This document shows positions 1,063 through 36,100 of a stretch of DNA of 39,595 nucleotides, one piece after another. Each line of letters begins with the position of its first letter. The stretch's first letter is position 1. The translations under genes and the position numbers were made by a program. Location of the stretch: positions 1-39,595 of IMG/VR virus record IMGVR_UViG_2541047944_000005. The stretch is one strand, 5' to 3'. The notes beneath the pieces were generated by a model that made no database searches, was not told where the DNA came from, and was given only the letters and a program-made list of their open reading frames with translations. This DNA is from a virus. Taxonomy: Duplodnaviria > Heunggongvirae > Uroviricota > Caudoviricetes.

Positions 1063-1404
1063 TCAGCCAGCATTGCGGCCTGATCGGGGTGATTTTTGGA
1101 TAGCGTCGGTTGAAGCCTGATCGCCCTCCGACTGAGAAGAGCCATCAAGAGAGAGAGCCGGGGCTATTTGCCCGGCGGCAGGTAGCGTTTTATCCTTTAA
1201 TAACCACAACATATACTTTTCGAATCGATCTACCTGCAAAACAGTCTCAACGATTTTTGCTCTGGCGCTTTTTTGCCCTGATTCATAGTTCCTTATGGCT
1301 GCTAAAGATAGTCCTGTGATATCAGCAAACTGCTTTTGTGTTAGCCCCTCTGCCTTACGTATTTGACGCAACTTTTCCGCATAGTCTATTGACAAGATAA
1401 CCAT
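1063..1404 (-). CDS. immunity repressor, P2 C-like (XRE-type HTH)
   Basis: 113 aa from ATG 1402-1404 with AGAGG RBS; HTH LTQKQFADITGLSLAAIRNYESGQ; sits between int and the divergent early operon as in P2. Upstream 38 codons of track ORF judged non-coding. Confidence 0.75.
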   Translation of the reverse strand: MVILSIDYAEKLRQIRKAEGLTQKQFADITGLSLAAIRNYESGQKSARAKIVETVLQVDRFEKYMLWLLKDKTLPAAGQIAPALSLDGSSQSEGDQASTDAIQKSPRSGRNAG

Positions 1405-1450
1405 TTGAGTATTAACCTCTCGCACAAAGATAACCGTACGATTATCTTTA

Positions 1451-1477
1451 CAAACCAAAACAAACCAAAACAAACCA
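1451..1477. repeat. tandem 10-bp direct repeats CAAACCAAAA (2.7 copies), candidate operator in the immunity switch
   Basis: caaaccaaaa caaaccaaaa caaacca read at 1451-1477 between repressor start and first early gene; TTGACA at 1389-1394 with TATTAA-like hexamer about 16 bp downstream could be the rightward early promoter. Confidence 0.45.
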
Positions 1478-1518
1478 TCACAAAGCGCAACAAGCGCACC
1501 AACGCAAGAGGATAACAA

Positions 1519-4651: not shown

Positions 4652-4855
4652 ATGAACAACAAGACATGGTTTCGCGCATACATGTGGGCGCTGGTATGCG
4701 TCCTCATTTCTCTCATCCTGTATGCAGGACTACTCCCCCGAATGATTTCATCTGACAGTTCCTTCCTGGTATTGCTGGGCATTTTCATTGCCCTGCTGTA
4801 CCCGGCAGGCGTTGTTCGCTTTTTCAGTAAATACATTGAGGAAATCAAACCATGA
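4652..4855 (+). CDS. small two-helix membrane protein (67 aa), partner of the SPFH gene
   Basis: MNNKTWFRAYMWALVCVLISLILYAGLL...LVLLGIFIALLYPAGVV has two hydrophobic segments; stop overlaps the ATG of the SPFH gene. Confidence 0.5.
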   Translation: MNNKTWFRAYMWALVCVLISLILYAGLLPRMISSDSSFLVLLGIFIALLYPAGVVRFFSKYIEEIKP

Positions 4856-5676
4856 AAAAACTCTTTCCGGTTATCCCGCTTTTTGCCGCCATCTTCCTGG
4901 TTGGTTGCGATCGCGTTGAGCCAGGTAATGTGGGCATCAAAGTCAACAAACTGGGCGACGACAAAGGCGTCGGCGAAGTGGTTGGCGTTGGCCGCTACTG
5001 GACTGGCTGGAATACCGAGGTTTACATCTTCCCGACCTTCAAACAAATGAAGACCTACGATGAGCCGTTCAGCTTCCAGATGAGTGACGGCACAACCATC
5101 GGCTATCACATCGGTGTGGCCTACAAGGTTGATCCATCCAAAGTTACTACAGTGTTTCAGACCTACCGCAAAGGCGTGGATGACATTACCGACACTGACC
5201 TGCGCCAGAAGATCGCCGATGCACTCAACCGACTGGCCAGCAAAATGACCACCGACAAATTTATCGACGGAGGGAAATCTGAACTACTGGATGCAGCTCT
5301 TAAAGACATTCAGGAGGAAATGACACCCATCGGTATTCAGGTAATGAGCCTCTCATATGTGGGTAAGCCGGAGTACCCGTCAACCGTTATCGACAGCATT
5401 AATGCCAAAGTCACGGCAAACCAGAAAACCCTGCAACGCGAACAGGAAGTCAAGCAACGTGAAGCAGAAGCCAACATGTTGCGCGCAGAAGCTGCCGGAC
5501 AGGCTGATGCCATTCGCACAAAAGCCCAGGCTGAAGCCGACGCCATTCGTTTACGCGGTGAAGCTCTGCGCCAGAATCCCGGCGTTATGGAGCTGGAAGC
5601 AATCAACAAATGGAACGGCACGCTGCCGCAATACATGACCAGCAACACCGCTGTTCCGTTTGTTCCGGTGAAGTAA
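4852..5676 (+). CDS. SPFH/band-7 (stomatin-prohibitin-flotillin-HflK/C) family lipoprotein
   Basis: 274 aa; signal peptide with lipobox LVGC near the N-terminus; SPFH-like core followed by Ala/Glu/Arg-rich coiled-coil tail (QREQEVKQREAEANMLRAEAAGQADAIR...). Confidence 0.7.
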   Translation: MKKLFPVIPLFAAIFLVGCDRVEPGNVGIKVNKLGDDKGVGEVVGVGRYWTGWNTEVYIFPTFKQMKTYDEPFSFQMSDGTTIGYHIGVAYKVDPSKVTTVFQTYRKGVDDITDTDLRQKIADALNRLASKMTTDKFIDGGKSELLDAALKDIQEEMTPIGIQVMSLSYVGKPEYPSTVIDSINAKVTANQKTLQREQEVKQREAEANMLRAEAAGQADAIRTKAQAEADAIRLRGEALRQNPGVMELEAINKWNGTLPQYMTSNTAVPFVPVK

Positions 5677-5682
5677 TTAAAC

Positions 5683-5728
5683 CCGGCCAGTGAAAATCGC
5701 TGGCCGGAGCAGTATCAGGATTTTTTTA
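5683..5728 (+). terminator. hairpin plus downstream T-run after the SPFH gene (weak intrinsic terminator)
   Basis: ccggccag...ctggccgg stem 5683-5707; T7 run at 5722-5728 is not immediately adjacent, so the call is weak. Confidence 0.35.
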
Positions 5729-6044
5729 GTATGCCGTTCTCACAAAAAAACCACTTGCCATGCCGCAATCAGTCAGGTTACATTTCCGCTGCACCTCACA
5801 AAACGAGTGCCGGGATTGGAACCCCGCTGACTATGCACGCGCACAACCGCGCCAGCGGTTTTTTTGTGCGTACCGTATCGCCACGTCTTTTTCGCGTCAG
5901 AATTATGGTGGGGCGTATGGGGCCGACTTCGGTCGGGCCGGATTCGTGCGTAGCCGGTAGTTCCAACCCTGTACGTCTCACCACCCCGAGCTTGGAACCT
6001 CTGGATGGTGAGTTTTTAAAACTTACTACGTACGAGGCCACCCC

Positions 6045-6275
6045 ATGGCAAACCGCAAACAGCACCGCGCTATCGCGGAGCGTCGTCACATCCAGACTGA
6101 AATCAACCGCAGACTTTTCCGCGCATTCCGCGTCGCGCATATCATGCACATCAATATGCTGCATGAACGCAGTCACGCACTATCGAACAGCTATTCCGCC
6201 TCTGTTTTCAGCTATCTGGCAGATGATCTGCGCGAGCTTCAAAAGCTCATCCAGCAGCAAAACAAACTCCATTAA
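6045..6275 (+). CDS. possible small basic protein (76 aa)
   Basis: ORF with GAGG 7 nt upstream of ATG; Arg/His-rich N-terminus; may instead be non-coding. Confidence 0.25.
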   Translation: MANRKQHRAIAERRHIQTEINRRLFRAFRVAHIMHINMLHERSHALSNSYSASVFSYLADDLRELQKLIQQQNKLH

Positions 6276-6347
6276 TTCCTGTTCCGGGCCTTTCCTGCAC
6301 CTTGCGGCGGGAGGCCTTCGCACATCTGTAACAAGAGGATTGCCGCA

Positions 6348-6713
6348 ATGATTCTCGCCAACGACTTTCTTGAATATCTGCTCAACACAGAACGTGATCT
6401 TGCCGCTCGCGTGCGTGATCGTTATGACATGTACCTGAAATCCCTGCCTGTACCGCAGCTCGCTGACGGAAAGATTGTTATTGATGGTCGCTACATGATT
6501 GACAGCCACGAGGGAAATTACAGGCTTTACCGCATTGAAGGTGGCACCCCGTCCGTTATTGGCATTTACCAGCGCCCATCCTCTGCAATCGTCGATGTGA
6601 TTGCCGACAGCATCCGCATCACACATCGCCATGCCGACACAGAAGACACCGTGCTGGAAATTCAGCGGCTGGCTGCCGTTTGCCGTGACACCCTCAACGG
6701 CATGACGAAGTAA
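6348..6713 (+). CDS. hypothetical protein immediately upstream of replication gene A
   Basis: 121 aa, AAGAGGA RBS; same position as the small orfs preceding A in P2. Confidence 0.5.
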   Translation: MILANDFLEYLLNTERDLAARVRDRYDMYLKSLPVPQLADGKIVIDGRYMIDSHEGNYRLYRIEGGTPSVIGIYQRPSSAIVDVIADSIRITHRHADTEDTVLEIQRLAAVCRDTLNGMTK

Positions 6714-6719
6714 ATCACT

Positions 6720-9542
6720 ATGACGGCAGAGTACATCAGGGACTGGCAACAACCGCGCCACGCAGTGGGGCGTGAAGGAACGGGGATCCCCGCTCCTGAA
6801 TCCGCACTTTCCTCCTGGCTGGATGCCTACCGGGTAGAGAACGAGCGCCGCCAGGAAATGGCTGATGCGGCGTTCTCCGCCACGCCACTGGGCAACCTGA
6901 TTAATAAAAGCCTGGACGCGCAGGAAAAACAGGACAAAACCATCACACTGGCAGGAGACGCCAGAAAACAGGCACGCGGTGCGGTGGATGAAGCCATGGC
7001 CTCGCTGCGCCTGCTGCCGTCCTATCTGCGCGATCCGCTTATTCGCCACCTCTCCTTCCTGCGCAAAAAACAGGAAGCCGATCGCCGGAAAGGCAAAAAG
7101 AGCTGGCAGGCGGAACGCTATGCACGCGGAACCCTGCGCAAAATATTGGAACGCCTGGCCCGCACTGACGGACGCTGGCTGACTCCGGGTTATCGCTCCC
7201 TTGCCGGACGTGAACGTCTGGACGATTTACTTTACCTGCCGCAGCTCAACAAACACCAGATACAGACACTGGCCGTCATGACGGCGGCAATGTTCAGCAG
7301 CACCTTCGAAAAACTCTGCGATGGCTTTGGCGCGACCGATGGCGAGCTGACCATGGATATAACGCTGAAGGCGTATCAGCTGCTGGCTCGCATGGCGTTA
7401 CATCTGCACACAGTGCCTCCGCATTATGACGCACTGACAACAGACAAAGACCGGAGGAACGAACCGGACACAGAACTGCTGCCGGGTGCAATCCTTCGCC
7501 TGACCTGTGCGGACTGGTGGAAACGCAAATTGTGGCTTTTACGTTGCGAATGGAGAGAGGAACAACTCCGCGCTGCCTGTCTGGTTTCCAGAAAAACATC
7601 CCCCTATCTGAGTCAGGATGCATTAAGTGAATTTCGCGCACAGCGCGAGAAAACACGCGATTTCCTGAAAAGTTTCATGCTGGAAAATGAAGACGGGTTC
7701 ACGATTGATCTCGAGACGGTGTATTACGCAGGTGTCAGTAACCCGGTCCACCGTAAAGCAGAAATGATGGCCACCATGAAAGGGCTGGAACTTCTGGCCG
7801 AAGCCCGTGGCGACAAAGCGGTGTTTCTGACTGTCACCTGCCCGTCAAAATACCACGCCACAACGGAGAACGGTCATCCGAATCCCAAATGGAACGGGGC
7901 CACAATGCGCGACTCCAGCGATTACCTGGTTAACACGTTTTTTGCGGCGGTCCGCAAAAAACTGAACCGCGACGGCCTGCGCTGGTATGGCATCCGCACG
8001 GTGGAGCCTCACCATGACGGCACTGTGCACTGGCATATGATGGTCTTTGCACATCCGGACGAGATTGAAACCATCGTGTCCCACGTCTGCGATATTGCCA
8101 TTCAGGAGGACCGCCACGAGCTGGGCGATGACATAACTCCGCGTTTTAAGGCGGAGTATGTCGACGGCTCAAAAGGCACACCAACCAGCTACATCGCCAC
8201 CTACATCGGAAAGAACCTGGACAGCCGCGCCGTGGATGGCATCGACCCGAAAACGGGCAAGCCACGCGTTGACCACGAAACCGGAAAATCAATGGCCGAG
8301 AGCGTGGAGCGCGCCATCGGCTGGGCGCGCCTTCACCGGGTCCGTCAGTTCCAGTTCTTTGGCATCCCCTCCCGTCAGGTGTGGCGTGAACTGCGCCGCC
8401 TTGCCAGCCAGATGGCACGCAATCCGGAAGGCCCGCAACGGCTGAAAGATGATGCAATGGATGCGGTACTCGCTGCCGCCGATGCCGGGTGTTTTGCCAC
8501 CTACATTGAAAAACAGGGCGGCGTACTTGTTCCACGCAAAGACTACCTGATTCGCACCGCCTACGACCTCGCAGATGAGCTGAATGATTACGGCGAACAG
8601 AGCGTACAGATTTACGGGATCTGGTCACCACTCATCGGGGAATCCTCCCGTGTGTGCACGCATCCGGATAACTGGAAACTGGTAAGACGTAAACCGGAAA
8701 CGGAAGACAGCGCCCGCGAAAATGGTTTTGACCTTCAGGGCGGCCCTGCCGCCCCTTGGACTCGTGGCAATAACTGTCCCCGTGTACAGGAAACGGACAA
8801 CAACGGGACAGAACAGCCGGAAGAACGACCAGCACCGTGGCCGCAGCTCCCTGACGGCGTTGAAGTGAACGAATGGATGCGCTCACTGAAACGGCACGAA
8901 CGCCGGGCGCTGATGCGTTCGCTTCGTGACAAACAGGCAAAAAACAGCAGTGATGAAATGCAGAGCTGGACACAGAGCCGCAAACAGCAGCGGCCTTTGC
9001 CTGATAACCACGAATTACTCGCTAAAGAATGGCGGGAATCTGCCGAATCTCTCGGCCTGCATATCGGTGAACAGCAGATGCAGCACCTGTTACGGGGCGG
9101 CAGCCTGTACGTTGACGGTAGCATCATTGCACCGCAGGGATTTGAAATTGTACGCAAACCGGATACCCGCCCGGACAGCCGAATCACGCAGTTCTGGCAG
9201 CGCCTGAGCCGTAATCACGGCGTAAGCAGCACAGAGATCCGCCATAACCCGGTCGCCAGCTATCTGGAACAACTGGGGGCATCAGACCCCGAAGCCGCCG
9301 CACGTCTGGCATCCACACTTCAGCAGGACCAGAACACCATGAAAACCCCCGTTACCGTGCTTTCTGACATGCTGCGCGCCATCCGTGACGCAGAGCACGC
9401 ACAGAGAATCAGTGAAACCACTGAACGCGCCCACCGCAAAGCAGACCTGCTGCGGGGTAGCCTGACCAGTGGAAACAAAAAACAGACAGAAACGGGACTC
9501 ACAAATCCCGTAAATGAGCAAAAAACGCGCCGCGATATATGA
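6720..9542 (+). CDS. A: rolling-circle replication initiator, P2 gpA family
   Basis: 940 aa; HUH-type motif HDGTVHWHMMVFAH and downstream Tyr-containing segment typical of P2 A/186 RepA; lies between early operon and cargo as in P2. Confidence 0.85.
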   Translation: MTAEYIRDWQQPRHAVGREGTGIPAPESALSSWLDAYRVENERRQEMADAAFSATPLGNLINKSLDAQEKQDKTITLAGDARKQARGAVDEAMASLRLLPSYLRDPLIRHLSFLRKKQEADRRKGKKSWQAERYARGTLRKILERLARTDGRWLTPGYRSLAGRERLDDLLYLPQLNKHQIQTLAVMTAAMFSSTFEKLCDGFGATDGELTMDITLKAYQLLARMALHLHTVPPHYDALTTDKDRRNEPDTELLPGAILRLTCADWWKRKLWLLRCEWREEQLRAACLVSRKTSPYLSQDALSEFRAQREKTRDFLKSFMLENEDGFTIDLETVYYAGVSNPVHRKAEMMATMKGLELLAEARGDKAVFLTVTCPSKYHATTENGHPNPKWNGATMRDSSDYLVNTFFAAVRKKLNRDGLRWYGIRTVEPHHDGTVHWHMMVFAHPDEIETIVSHVCDIAIQEDRHELGDDITPRFKAEYVDGSKGTPTSYIATYIGKNLDSRAVDGIDPKTGKPRVDHETGKSMAESVERAIGWARLHRVRQFQFFGIPSRQVWRELRRLASQMARNPEGPQRLKDDAMDAVLAAADAGCFATYIEKQGGVLVPRKDYLIRTAYDLADELNDYGEQSVQIYGIWSPLIGESSRVCTHPDNWKLVRRKPETEDSARENGFDLQGGPAAPWTRGNNCPRVQETDNNGTEQPEERPAPWPQLPDGVEVNEWMRSLKRHERRALMRSLRDKQAKNSSDEMQSWTQSRKQQRPLPDNHELLAKEWRESAESLGLHIGEQQMQHLLRGGSLYVDGSIIAPQGFEIVRKPDTRPDSRITQFWQRLSRNHGVSSTEIRHNPVASYLEQLGASDPEAAARLASTLQQDQNTMKTPVTVLSDMLRAIRDAEHAQRISETTERAHRKADLLRGSLTSGNKKQTETGLTNPVNEQKTRRDI

Positions 9543-34916: not shown

Positions 34917-36100
34917 CAGGCACCTCCCAGCACCGCAAATGCGGGACCAAAGAATTCATCAGTAAACGTCTGGTAAAGCTCCATGTCTTCCAGCGGGGGA
35001 ACAGGCGTATATTTGTAGCGAATACGCACACGTCCCTGACGTAAATTCGTGGTGCCGTTATCCACCACGTCATACCAGCACTCCGCACCAATCAGTTTCC
35101 CGGCAGTAACCAGCGAATCCAGTTTTGCCCTGATGGCGCTGATAACATCCTTCACGTTCGCAGGTGTCAGTGGACTGTCGATGGTTTCAAACTGCGCTTC
35201 CGCAATTGAATCAGCCAGCACCTGTGCGGTTCGGGTATACACCTCAAAGATGTAGGCGTTCGTTTCCGGTGTGCGGTTGCCCCAGAAGCGGAACCCGTTG
35301 CGACGAATAATGGTCGTGATTTCTTTGTTGTTGAGGCTGTTGGCATCGCTGTCTTCGGCCTGCAACGACCAGAACACATGCCTGGACATTCCCAGCACAT
35401 TTTTAACCGGAACGTTGGACAGCGATTTGTGCCAGCCCTGCTCATGGTCAATGTACGCACGAAGGCCGCACGCATAGGCAGGCGCGGGGAACGTTTCGTT
35501 TTTGCCACTTTTCGGGTTGTAGGCGATGAAGTCCGGCCATAAGAGCATCACCTCACGTTCGTTGAATTTCTGGCGGTAGGTAATCGCCTCAGCCATCGTG
35601 TTACAGCCGTGACATGAGGCATACACAAACGCGCGCAGTTTACCTGCAATCACGCACAGGGATTTTGTTACAGCCTCCGTGTCCAGCTCCGGCGCGGCCA
35701 GAATACGCGGACGGTATCCGATGCTTTCATCCTGCTCTGCAACAAGCAGCGCATACATCCCCGTATAGCTGCCGTCATCCTCAGAACCACCGATAACCAG
35801 TTGATCCTGCGTCTTTCCGTCTTCTTCTTTGTGTTCAGCCACGCGAACGACGATCACCTTTGTGCTCACCTGGTCTGCGATGGCCTTAAGCGCACGATAA
35901 AGCGTCCCCGTTGTCCCGCATTTTCCCAGCACGTCATTGACGCGGGTCAGCAGTGTGGGCTTATTCAGCGGGAACAGCTTCGCGTCCGCATCATCCGCCG
36001 TTGCCACGATACCGATAACGCTGGAATCAACATCGTTAATCGCTGTTACCAGGTCGGTATTTTCCGTAACACGGGCACCATGAAAACGAGTTTCACTCAT
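34916..36100 (-). CDS. FI: contractile tail sheath protein, P2 gpFI family
   Basis: 394 aa; segments LRAFVYASCHG, EQGWHKSLSNV, FRFWGNRT, YTPVPPLE parallel P2 FI as recalled. Confidence 0.85.
   Translation of the reverse strand: MSETRFHGARVTENTDLVTAINDVDSSVIGIVATADDADAKLFPLNKPTLLTRVNDVLGKCGTTGTLYRALKAIADQVSTKVIVVRVAEHKEEDGKTQDQLVIGGSEDDGSYTGMYALLVAEQDESIGYRPRILAAPELDTEAVTKSLCVIAGKLRAFVYASCHGCNTMAEAITYRQKFNEREVMLLWPDFIAYNPKSGKNETFPAPAYACGLRAYIDHEQGWHKSLSNVPVKNVLGMSRHVFWSLQAEDSDANSLNNKEITTIIRRNGFRFWGNRTPETNAYIFEVYTRTAQVLADSIAEAQFETIDSPLTPANVKDVISAIRAKLDSLVTAGKLIGAECWYDVVDNGTTNLRQGRVRIRYKYTPVPPLEDMELYQTFTDEFFGPAFAVLGGA

Follow-up and report, generated by a model that had tools for sequence, protein, structure and literature searches.

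What does a phage encode in a gap between genes where complementary segments crowd together and where the long open reading frames (ORFs), present on both strands, carry no coding signature? The question is raised by a 39,595-nt stretch of viral DNA (IMG/VR record IMGVR_UViG_2541047944_000005; hereafter, the window), in which a 316-bp gap, positions 5729-6044, sits between an SPFH/Band-7 lipoprotein gene (4852-5676) and a 76-aa ORF (6045-6275). This DNA is a P2-like prophage of the P88 type, in the genus Xuanwuvirus of the Peduoviridae. Its region 5650-6750 is 94.8% identical to Escherichia phage P88, and the two share the gene order int, C, cox, ..., gap, "derepression protein," hypothetical protein, replication endonuclease, and ParM. 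Three more examples were found, all in P88-like prophages, and the repressor/Cox regions differ among them. A sequence-only reading had proposed that the gap could be a small RNA or a replication/regulatory site. Our analysis makes it likely that the gap is an IsrK-C4 antisense-RNA immunity module (P4-type seqA-CI-seqC, P1-type immI) of a P88-like P2-family prophage. The small-RNA half of the proposal holds, in the form of two linked RNAs plus cis targets rather than one RNA. The replication-site half finds no support: apart from the RNA target sites there are no repeats, and where these sites mismatch they do so as G·U wobbles on one strand.

The whole window was scanned with Rfam at the curated gathering thresholds. 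The scan, which the sequence-only reading had suggested, returned exactly two matches, both on the plus strand and both inside the gap, corresponding to two small-RNA genes of known families. A tRNA/tmRNA scan found none. Every element that had been noticed by eye is present, displaced by 1-2 nt at most, and the hairpins all fall within the two Rfam matches: the terminator is the 3' end of isrK, and the UUCG and CCGG elements are the inner hairpins of C4. The parts of the two RNAs are the following:

5755-5784, plus strand: predicted sigma-70-like promoter, TTGCCA-18 nt-TACATT (promoter scan, 9/12 consensus match)
5791-5865, plus strand: IsrK/SeqA-type leader RNA (Rfam RF01394 isrK, 59.4 bits versus a gathering score of 50, E 2e-10)
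5791-5810, plus strand: isrK hairpin 1 (Rfam model, covariation)
5811-5826, plus strand: isrK hairpin 2, whose loop holds target a1
5846-5859 (through 5865), plus strand: intrinsic terminator stem, then T7 (terminator scan)
5901-5988, plus strand: C4/CI-type antisense RNA (Rfam RF01695, 79.8 bits versus 45, model positions 1-87, full length, E 3e-14)
5906-5922 with 5967-5983, plus strand: C4 closing stem, 17 bp (fold, covariation)
5923-5936, plus strand: C4 UUCG hairpin, CCGAC/UUCG/GUCGG
5937-5941 with 5954-5958, plus strand: C4 hairpin 2, CCGG...CCGG

The terminator-like element resolves into CCGCGCCAGCGG at 5847-5858 followed by T7 at 5859-5865, and the terminator scan concurs. The minimum-energy fold of the C4 segment is the family consensus (-43 kcal/mol), with z = -3.0 on the plus strand versus -0.5 on the minus strand. 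That the structure exceeds chance is shown by this z value and by the two whole-window Rfam E-values.

Two segments of the C4 RNA, b' and a', are complementary to one pair of target sites upstream in the leader (a1 and b1) and to a second pair downstream, ahead of the 76-aa ORF (a2 and b2):

5816-5822, plus strand: a1 target, UUGGAAC, in the loop of isrK hairpin 2
5831-5839, plus strand: b1 target, CUAUGCACG, complementary to b'
5943-5953, plus strand: b' specificity loop, UUCGUGCGUAG, 9 bp with b1 and 11 bp (including 2 G·U) with b2
5960-5966, plus strand: a' specificity segment, GUUCCAA, at the C4 junction, 7 bp with each of a1 and a2 (inverted repeats I5 and I12)
5992-5998, plus strand: a2 target, UUGGAAC, part of the seqC equivalent
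6026-6036, plus strand: b2 target, CUACGUACGAG, overlapping the GAGG Shine-Dalgarno at 6034-6037

The Shine-Dalgarno GAGG stands 7 nt ahead of the ATG at 6045. Duplex energies of b' are -13.2 kcal/mol with b1 and -15.6 kcal/mol with b2; those of a' with a1 and a2 are about -8.9 kcal/mol each. The complementarity of GTTCCAA (5960-5966) and TTGGAAC (5992-5998), previously placed at 5962-5997, was rightly seen and is I12 of the repeat scan. Its interpretation changes: the two segments form an antisense-loop/target pair (a'/a2) and not merely a local hairpin.

Covariation, a check that the sequence-only reading had called for, is strong both in the stems and in the pairing with the target sites. 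Viral contigs were scanned for the invariant part of the C4 hairpins, yielding at least 120 stretches, to which annotated relatives were added. The sample totals at least 126 modules, at least 69 distinct module sequences, and at least 26 distinct b'/a' combinations; many of the sequences are closely related, and alignment cells are not independent events. In alignment A2, the C4 stems together with b'-b2 and a'-a2 are 92.9% paired (slid controls, 40-45%), and the isrK hairpins together with a1-a' and b1-b' are 92.5% paired (slid controls, 35-47%). Each of the two sets contains 20 pairs changed on both sides, and for each, 0 of 500 shuffles reached the observed value. The covariation score of the isrK-side structure is 0.42 versus 0.11 in shuffles. 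Among the matches listed, pairing in the C4 closing stem is complete (100%) over 69 sequences, both partners having changed in 7 of its pairs, and the isrK hairpins are 83-98% paired across the alignment. The C4 inner hairpins are invariant in the sample, partly because the search pattern fixed them.

The matches listed comprise at least about 15 b' types and at least 9 a' types, recombined modularly. In all 26 types listed, both the upstream and the downstream targets fit the loops; that is, three sites change together. Matches are usually 9 nt for b1, 8-12 nt for b2, and 7-8 nt for a1/a2, and b2 lies on the Shine-Dalgarno in every type listed. Across these types, mean seqB:seqC duplex energies (in P4 nomenclature) are -23.5 kcal/mol for cognate versus -12.4 kcal/mol for fully non-cognate combinations. 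The window's own seqB:seqC duplex has -24.5 kcal/mol, versus -14.7 kcal/mol with the best of the other 25 types listed, and its b'/a' combination was found only in the window among the matches listed. Elsewhere in the window, b' has 12 further matches at two or fewer mismatches versus 10.7 expected, which is the chance level. One of these near-matches, GTACGCACGAA at 35453-35463 (plus strand), fits the complement of the b' loop at 10/11 positions and is probably meaningless. A local hairpin at 6006-6028, between a2 and b2, is predicted by folding; covariation is absent there (77.5% paired versus 75.2% in shuffles), and we rejected it.

Can anything other than a pair of regulatory RNAs account for this pattern? 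The cells that depart from Watson-Crick pairing comprise 66 G·U as read on the plus strand, 5 A·C, and 20 other. This strand-specific G·U bias favors pairing between plus-strand transcripts as RNA and speaks against co-evolving DNA binding sites. An origin, or iterons whose 7-mers and 9-mers co-evolve with a protein, would fit the threefold occurrence of the motifs, two direct and one inverted, beside a replication gene. Such a DNA-level element is exceedingly improbable: an excess of G·U over A·C can be understood only at the RNA level, folding reaches significance on the plus strand and not on the minus strand, composition is flat with neither an AT-rich region nor a skew change, and in P2-type phages the origin lies inside gene A. 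Almost as hard to sustain is the notion that the stretch encodes a protein, either the "ash family protein" of PGAP or the minus-strand ORF annotated as P88 gp13. The ORF at 5731-6351 (plus strand; 206 aa) scores 33.7 bits against Pfam PF10554 Phage_ASH, above the cut-off of 26; RefSeq and GenBank annotate an ash protein here; and the Ash frame is stop-free in 68/69 modules among the matches listed. Purifying selection on a translated Ash protein is, however, not supported. Specifically, variable columns of the Ash frame number 25/23/20 by codon position, with no third-position excess, versus 33/30/52 in the adjoining epsilon-like 76-aa ORF; variable sites change such that RNA pairing, not the amino acids, is kept; and the chance of the Ash frame staying open across the epsilon overlap is 0.11. 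No Shine-Dalgarno precedes 5731 or 5905, and in P1 the same AUG (that at 5905) yields only 14 codons. In P4, the immunity factor was identified genetically as an RNA. The Pfam PF10554/PGAP Ash family is most likely built on the translation of an RNA locus. Starting at the conserved AUG (5905), the Ash frame runs 148 codons to a TGA overlapping the orf121 ATG (ATGA, 6348-6351), probably as a by-product; a short translated leader like orf45 of Gifsy-1 may begin at this AUG. P88 gp13, a "hypothetical protein" (L001, the P88 record, 5033-5221, minus strand; about 5795-5983 in the window), lies on top of the isrK and C4 RNAs and is almost certainly a spurious ORF call. Finally, the gap could hold a plain terminator of the upstream early/SPFH transcript followed by a structured 5' untranslated region of the epsilon-like gene, with no trans-acting RNA. 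In its favor are the intrinsic terminator and the intergenic position. This explanation is improbable, as it leaves unaccounted for the three-way covariation over sites up to 200 nt apart, the 26 or more types, and the resemblance to the C4/CI RNAs that P1 and P4 process.

In the reading as an immunity module, the presumed regulatory targets lie immediately downstream, where the gene order epsilon-like, orf121, A is the same in P88 and other relatives:

6045-6275, plus strand: gene for the 76-aa epsilon-like "derepression protein," first gene downstream and presumed direct target of translational repression
6348-6713, plus strand: orf121 (121 aa), presumed co-regulated by polarity
6720-9542, plus strand: replication endonuclease A (940 aa; Pfam Phage_GPA, 427 bits), presumed co-regulated by polarity

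The enrichment of variable columns at the third codon position marks the 76-aa ORF as a real gene. Its product is a probable homolog of the P4 epsilon derepression protein. Most homologs of the 76-aa protein bear a precomputed match to Pfam PF25738 (Derepression protein), BLASTP aligns it to P4 epsilon with 27% identity over 66 aa (E 1e-6), and hhalign gives a probability of 90.7%. P4 epsilon binds the P2 C repressor and thereby inactivates it. Searches of NCBIfam and of PDB sequences with the 76-aa protein gave no matches, and orf121 has no detectable similarity to P4 orf151. Cotranscription of the three genes, with polarity, may be expected by analogy to P4 and P1.

Given the family membership, fold, complementarity, three-way covariation, and strand specificity established above, the most likely function of the module is RNA-based immunity that would block translation and read-through of the epsilon-like/A operon. 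The promoter at 5755-5784 would drive rightward transcription from a predicted start near 5791. Most transcripts would end at the intrinsic terminator (5846-5865), producing an IsrK/SeqA-type RNA of about 75 nt that carries a1 and b1. Read-through transcripts would carry the C4/CI-like RNA. In P1 and P4, C4/CI RNA is cut out by RNase P plus 3' trimming, and the processed RNA is the genetically defined immunity factor. By homology, the C4-like RNA would likewise be excised by RNase P from a longer precursor and act in trans as an immunity factor; its predicted mature form, from the offsets of the C4 RNA annotated in the P1 record, is about 5907-5985. The exposed b' loop and a' segment would then pair with a2/b2 on the read-through mRNA and mask the Shine-Dalgarno of the epsilon-like gene. 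The untranslated mRNA would terminate early, presumably by Rho-dependent polarity as in P4 and P1, such that the epsilon-like gene, orf121, and A would be off in the lysogen as well as in any superinfecting phage that shares its RNA type. Sites a1/b1, which both the leader and the short IsrK RNA carry, would compete for the same loops, either as a lock in cis or as a decoy in trans that turns the operon on.

The promoter deserves separate comment. Its -10 hexamer ends 6 nt ahead of hairpin 1, and both hexamers are unchanged in 6 P88-like relatives. The number of consensus matches found by the promoter scan is at the chance level, and support for the promoter comes from this positional conservation. 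No LexA box exists at the module promoter, and we found no SOS link there; CTGT-N8-ACAG matches twice in the window, at 8774 and 15066, neither of them AT-rich.

Work on Salmonella prophage Gifsy-1 suggests a different emphasis, in which the read-through RNA locks itself in cis (seqA with the C4 region), the short IsrK opens this structure in trans to allow translation and prophage induction, and the C4-like RNA is not the main repressor. Experiments in Gifsy-1 showed that the locked read-through RNA is opened by short IsrK in trans and that the prophage is induced (PMC4825925). In the window, a1/b1 are joined to a'/b' in cis when 5791-6060 is folded to minimum energy (-106 kcal/mol, z = -3.6), and the conserved AUG at the 5' end of C4 (5905) begins an ORF that recalls orf45 of Gifsy-1, which is translated. 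Furthermore, an alternative helix takes the 3' strand of the C4 closing stem (5977-5983) and pairs it with 6006-6012, a conserved GGUGAG downstream of a2. This helix is 99.4% paired, and 5/7 of its pairs are changed on both sides, mostly from five P4-like rows, with the compensatory changes falling between P88-like and P4-like rows. It is incompatible with a folded C4 RNA and, as modeled, would show a2 in a loop. Against giving the Gifsy-1 model the leading role stand the position of b2 on the Shine-Dalgarno, the genetics of the processed C4/CI RNA in P1 and P4, and the C4 closing stem itself, which is fully paired and covarying and which thus argues that a folded, processed C4 is under selection. 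We consider the Gifsy-1-style emphasis rather unlikely for this module. The two models are not mutually exclusive; they represent rival emphases, not a contradiction.

Several observations weigh against the immunity module in which C4 represses the operon. The isrK segment alone is thermodynamically ordinary (z = -0.84 versus shuffles). The RF03163 c4-a1b1 model scores the leader at 15.8 bits, short of its threshold of 46.7; the a1 and b1 sites are present and covarying despite this score. The promoter scan found one promoter versus 0.8 expected by chance. The anti-repressor role of the 76-aa protein rests on an identity to P4 epsilon that is low (27-29%), and the protein itself scores 25.4 bits against PF25738, just below the cut-off of 27. 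Epsilon-like clusters do not track the C-repressor type of the prophage, with an adjusted mutual information (AMI) of 0.10-0.18 in a small sample affected by linkage. Finally, in Gifsy-1, it is the short IsrK that activates, and no clear repressor role was found for the C4-like STnc1160 (PMC4825925).

How does the module compare to known systems? The immunity region of P4 is laid out as PLE, seqA, CI RNA/seqB, seqC, kil/eta, epsilon, orf151, and alpha. As in the window, P4 has two Rfam matches in the same order and orientation (isrK, 60.8 bits over seqA and the terminator; C4, 74.9 bits over the CI RNA). A terminator follows seqA, seqB is complementary to the upstream seqA and the downstream seqC of the same transcript through segments corresponding to a'/b', seqC covers the ribosome-binding site of the next ORF, and an epsilon homolog and a replication gene lie downstream. 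The P4 hexamers upstream of seqA, TTGCCT-17-TATAGT (identified by eye), which we take to be PLE, place the -10 hexamer 6 nt before the first hairpin, exactly as in the window. The window promoter is the positional equivalent of these hexamers and of PisrK in Gifsy-1. By analogy to P4, transcription of the replication operon may terminate early in the immune state. The differences are equally clear. P4 is a satellite, whereas the window holds a complete P2-like phage; its epsilon-like gene directly follows seqC, without kil/eta; its replication gene encodes a GPA nickase rather than the alpha primase-helicase; and a Cox-side early operon, rather than orf88/vis, lies upstream. The window phage and P4 differ completely in loop and target sequence and should therefore be heteroimmune.

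The immI region of P1/P7 is arranged as P51, a1 b1, c4, a2 b2, icd, ant1/2, then kilA-repL, and its C4 RNA is annotated in P1 as 77 nt. The order and similar spacing of a1, b1, C4, a2, and b2 recur in the window, including the position of a2 relative to the 3' end of C4. In both, b2 sits about 10 nt before the first ORF (icd in P1), and an anti-repressor operon, putative in the window, is next, followed by lytic replication genes. In P1, the Rfam scores are 68.8 bits for C4, 51.0 bits for c4-a1b1, and 35.1 bits for isrK, the last of these below threshold. The window is the reverse: its leader reaches the isrK threshold and misses that of c4-a1b1. From the P1 scores, we deduce that isrK and c4-a1b1 model the same leader region, which is why the leader in the window is filed under isrK. 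Unlike P1, the first ORF in the window is epsilon-like, not Icd, and no Ant1/2 homolog is present.

Gifsy-1 is organized as isrK, orf45/STnc1160, anrP, and isrJ (Hershko-Shalev 2016, PMC4825925). It resembles the window in having an IsrK-family RNA that has a dedicated promoter and a terminator allowing read-through (promoter activity and read-through both being predicted for the window), a read-through mRNA with a processed C4-like RNA and an anti-repressor gene (likewise predicted), and complementarity of IsrK to the downstream region with alternative structures. Hfq binding and short and read-through isoforms are known for the Gifsy-1 IsrK (PMC4825925). Unlike the window, Gifsy-1 is a lambdoid prophage with an unrelated anti-repressor and an AntQ antiterminator output. 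Its orf45 is translated, and the orf45-like ORF of the window is a candidate for translation. In N15 anti-immunity (CA RNA, antA), a small processed RNA controls an anti-repressor (PMC3632133), as we propose for the window. In N15 and in the lambdoid/Stx IsrK-C4 modules, the regulated family is Rha/Ant versus epsilon-like in the window, and the backbone differs too. IsrK has already been equated with seqA, and C4 with CI RNA (Hershko-Shalev 2016, PMC4825925; Barquist 2013, PMC3632133), and the term "IsrK-C4 immunity system" covers P4, P1, P7, N15, and some lambdoid prophages (PMC3632133; PMC4825925). The RNA families, the mechanism, and the exchangeable specificities (P1 versus P7, P4 versus phiR73) are already established, and the conceptual gain is small, as the mechanism is that of P1, P4, N15, and Gifsy-1. 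Our finding is a switch of an established type, in a group of phages whose annotation omits it. In a literature search, no description of the module in P2-like or Xuanwuvirus phages turned up.

The module is common: 1172/5426 complete E. coli genomes have megablast matches to the 316-bp stretch, mostly at 80-90% identity. In sampled records it is labeled "ash family protein" or "hypothetical protein" or bears no annotation, and none calls it an RNA. Many Stx2-converting and other lambdoid phages, as well as mEp460, the cdtI phage, and L008-type loci, have homologous modules (67-73% identity) ahead of Rha/antirepressor genes, and P4-like satellites (L018-type) also bear the module. The isrK-C4 module at L008:4334-6042 and 23 similar viral-contig loci is followed by a Rha-domain gene, after which come DnaC-like and DnaB-like genes. 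Immediately upstream, another ORF matches both Phage_ASH and Rha, which suggests two tandem modules. The 26 or more natural, modularly recombined loop/target sets represent a ready panel of orthogonal antisense pairs.

The RNA specificity type of a prophage is independent of its C type (AMI about 0), indicating that the RNA module behaves as an independently reassorting immunity determinant. The reading predicts two independent immunity determinants in P88-like prophages, which would bear on superinfection, on induction, and on how these prophages and P4-like satellites interact in pathogenic E. coli; relatives are found in ST131 and O157. We tentatively entertain a broader possibility: that P88-like P2-family phages carry a complete P4-style cassette (promoter, seqA, CI RNA, seqC, epsilon homolog, and replication gene) as a freely reassorting second immunity layer, independent of C/Cox and with at least 26 specificities uncorrelated with repressor type, in which the RNA gates a derepressor that the phage itself encodes and that acts broadly on P2-type repressors. 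Mitomycin C induces P88 (PMC5285337). If such a second layer exists, it could explain this inducibility versus the non-inducible classical P2. In addition, the P4-satellite immunity/epsilon module and the module of helper-type phages could share a recent common origin. If so, helpers and satellites may derepress or immunize each other through the module.

If the epsilon-like protein acts as an anti-repressor, it is not tied closely to a single type of repressor. Its clusters number only about 6, and the repressor clusters with which they co-occur number at least 16. The helix-turn-helix repressors of differing P88-like immunity types share a C-terminal motif, A/V-G-Q-I/V-x-P-A-L (window 1063-1518, minus strand; L001:1170-1451; L004:965-1285). 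A broad-spectrum anti-repressor could have this motif as its shared target. In P88-like phages, genes for ParM and a partition protein directly follow gene A (8856-10131 in P88; downstream of 9542 in the window). Their presence suggests that these phages are able to persist in plasmid-like form. P4 and P1 do so too, and both use C4-type RNA immunity.

On the other side of the module, the SPFH/Band-7 lipoprotein gene and the hairpin that follows it (5683-5707, with a T-run only at 5721-5728) are missing in several P88-like relatives (L004-L006), in which a 99-aa gene abuts the module instead. The SPFH gene region (4852-5728) is a moron-like insertion just upstream of the module promoter.

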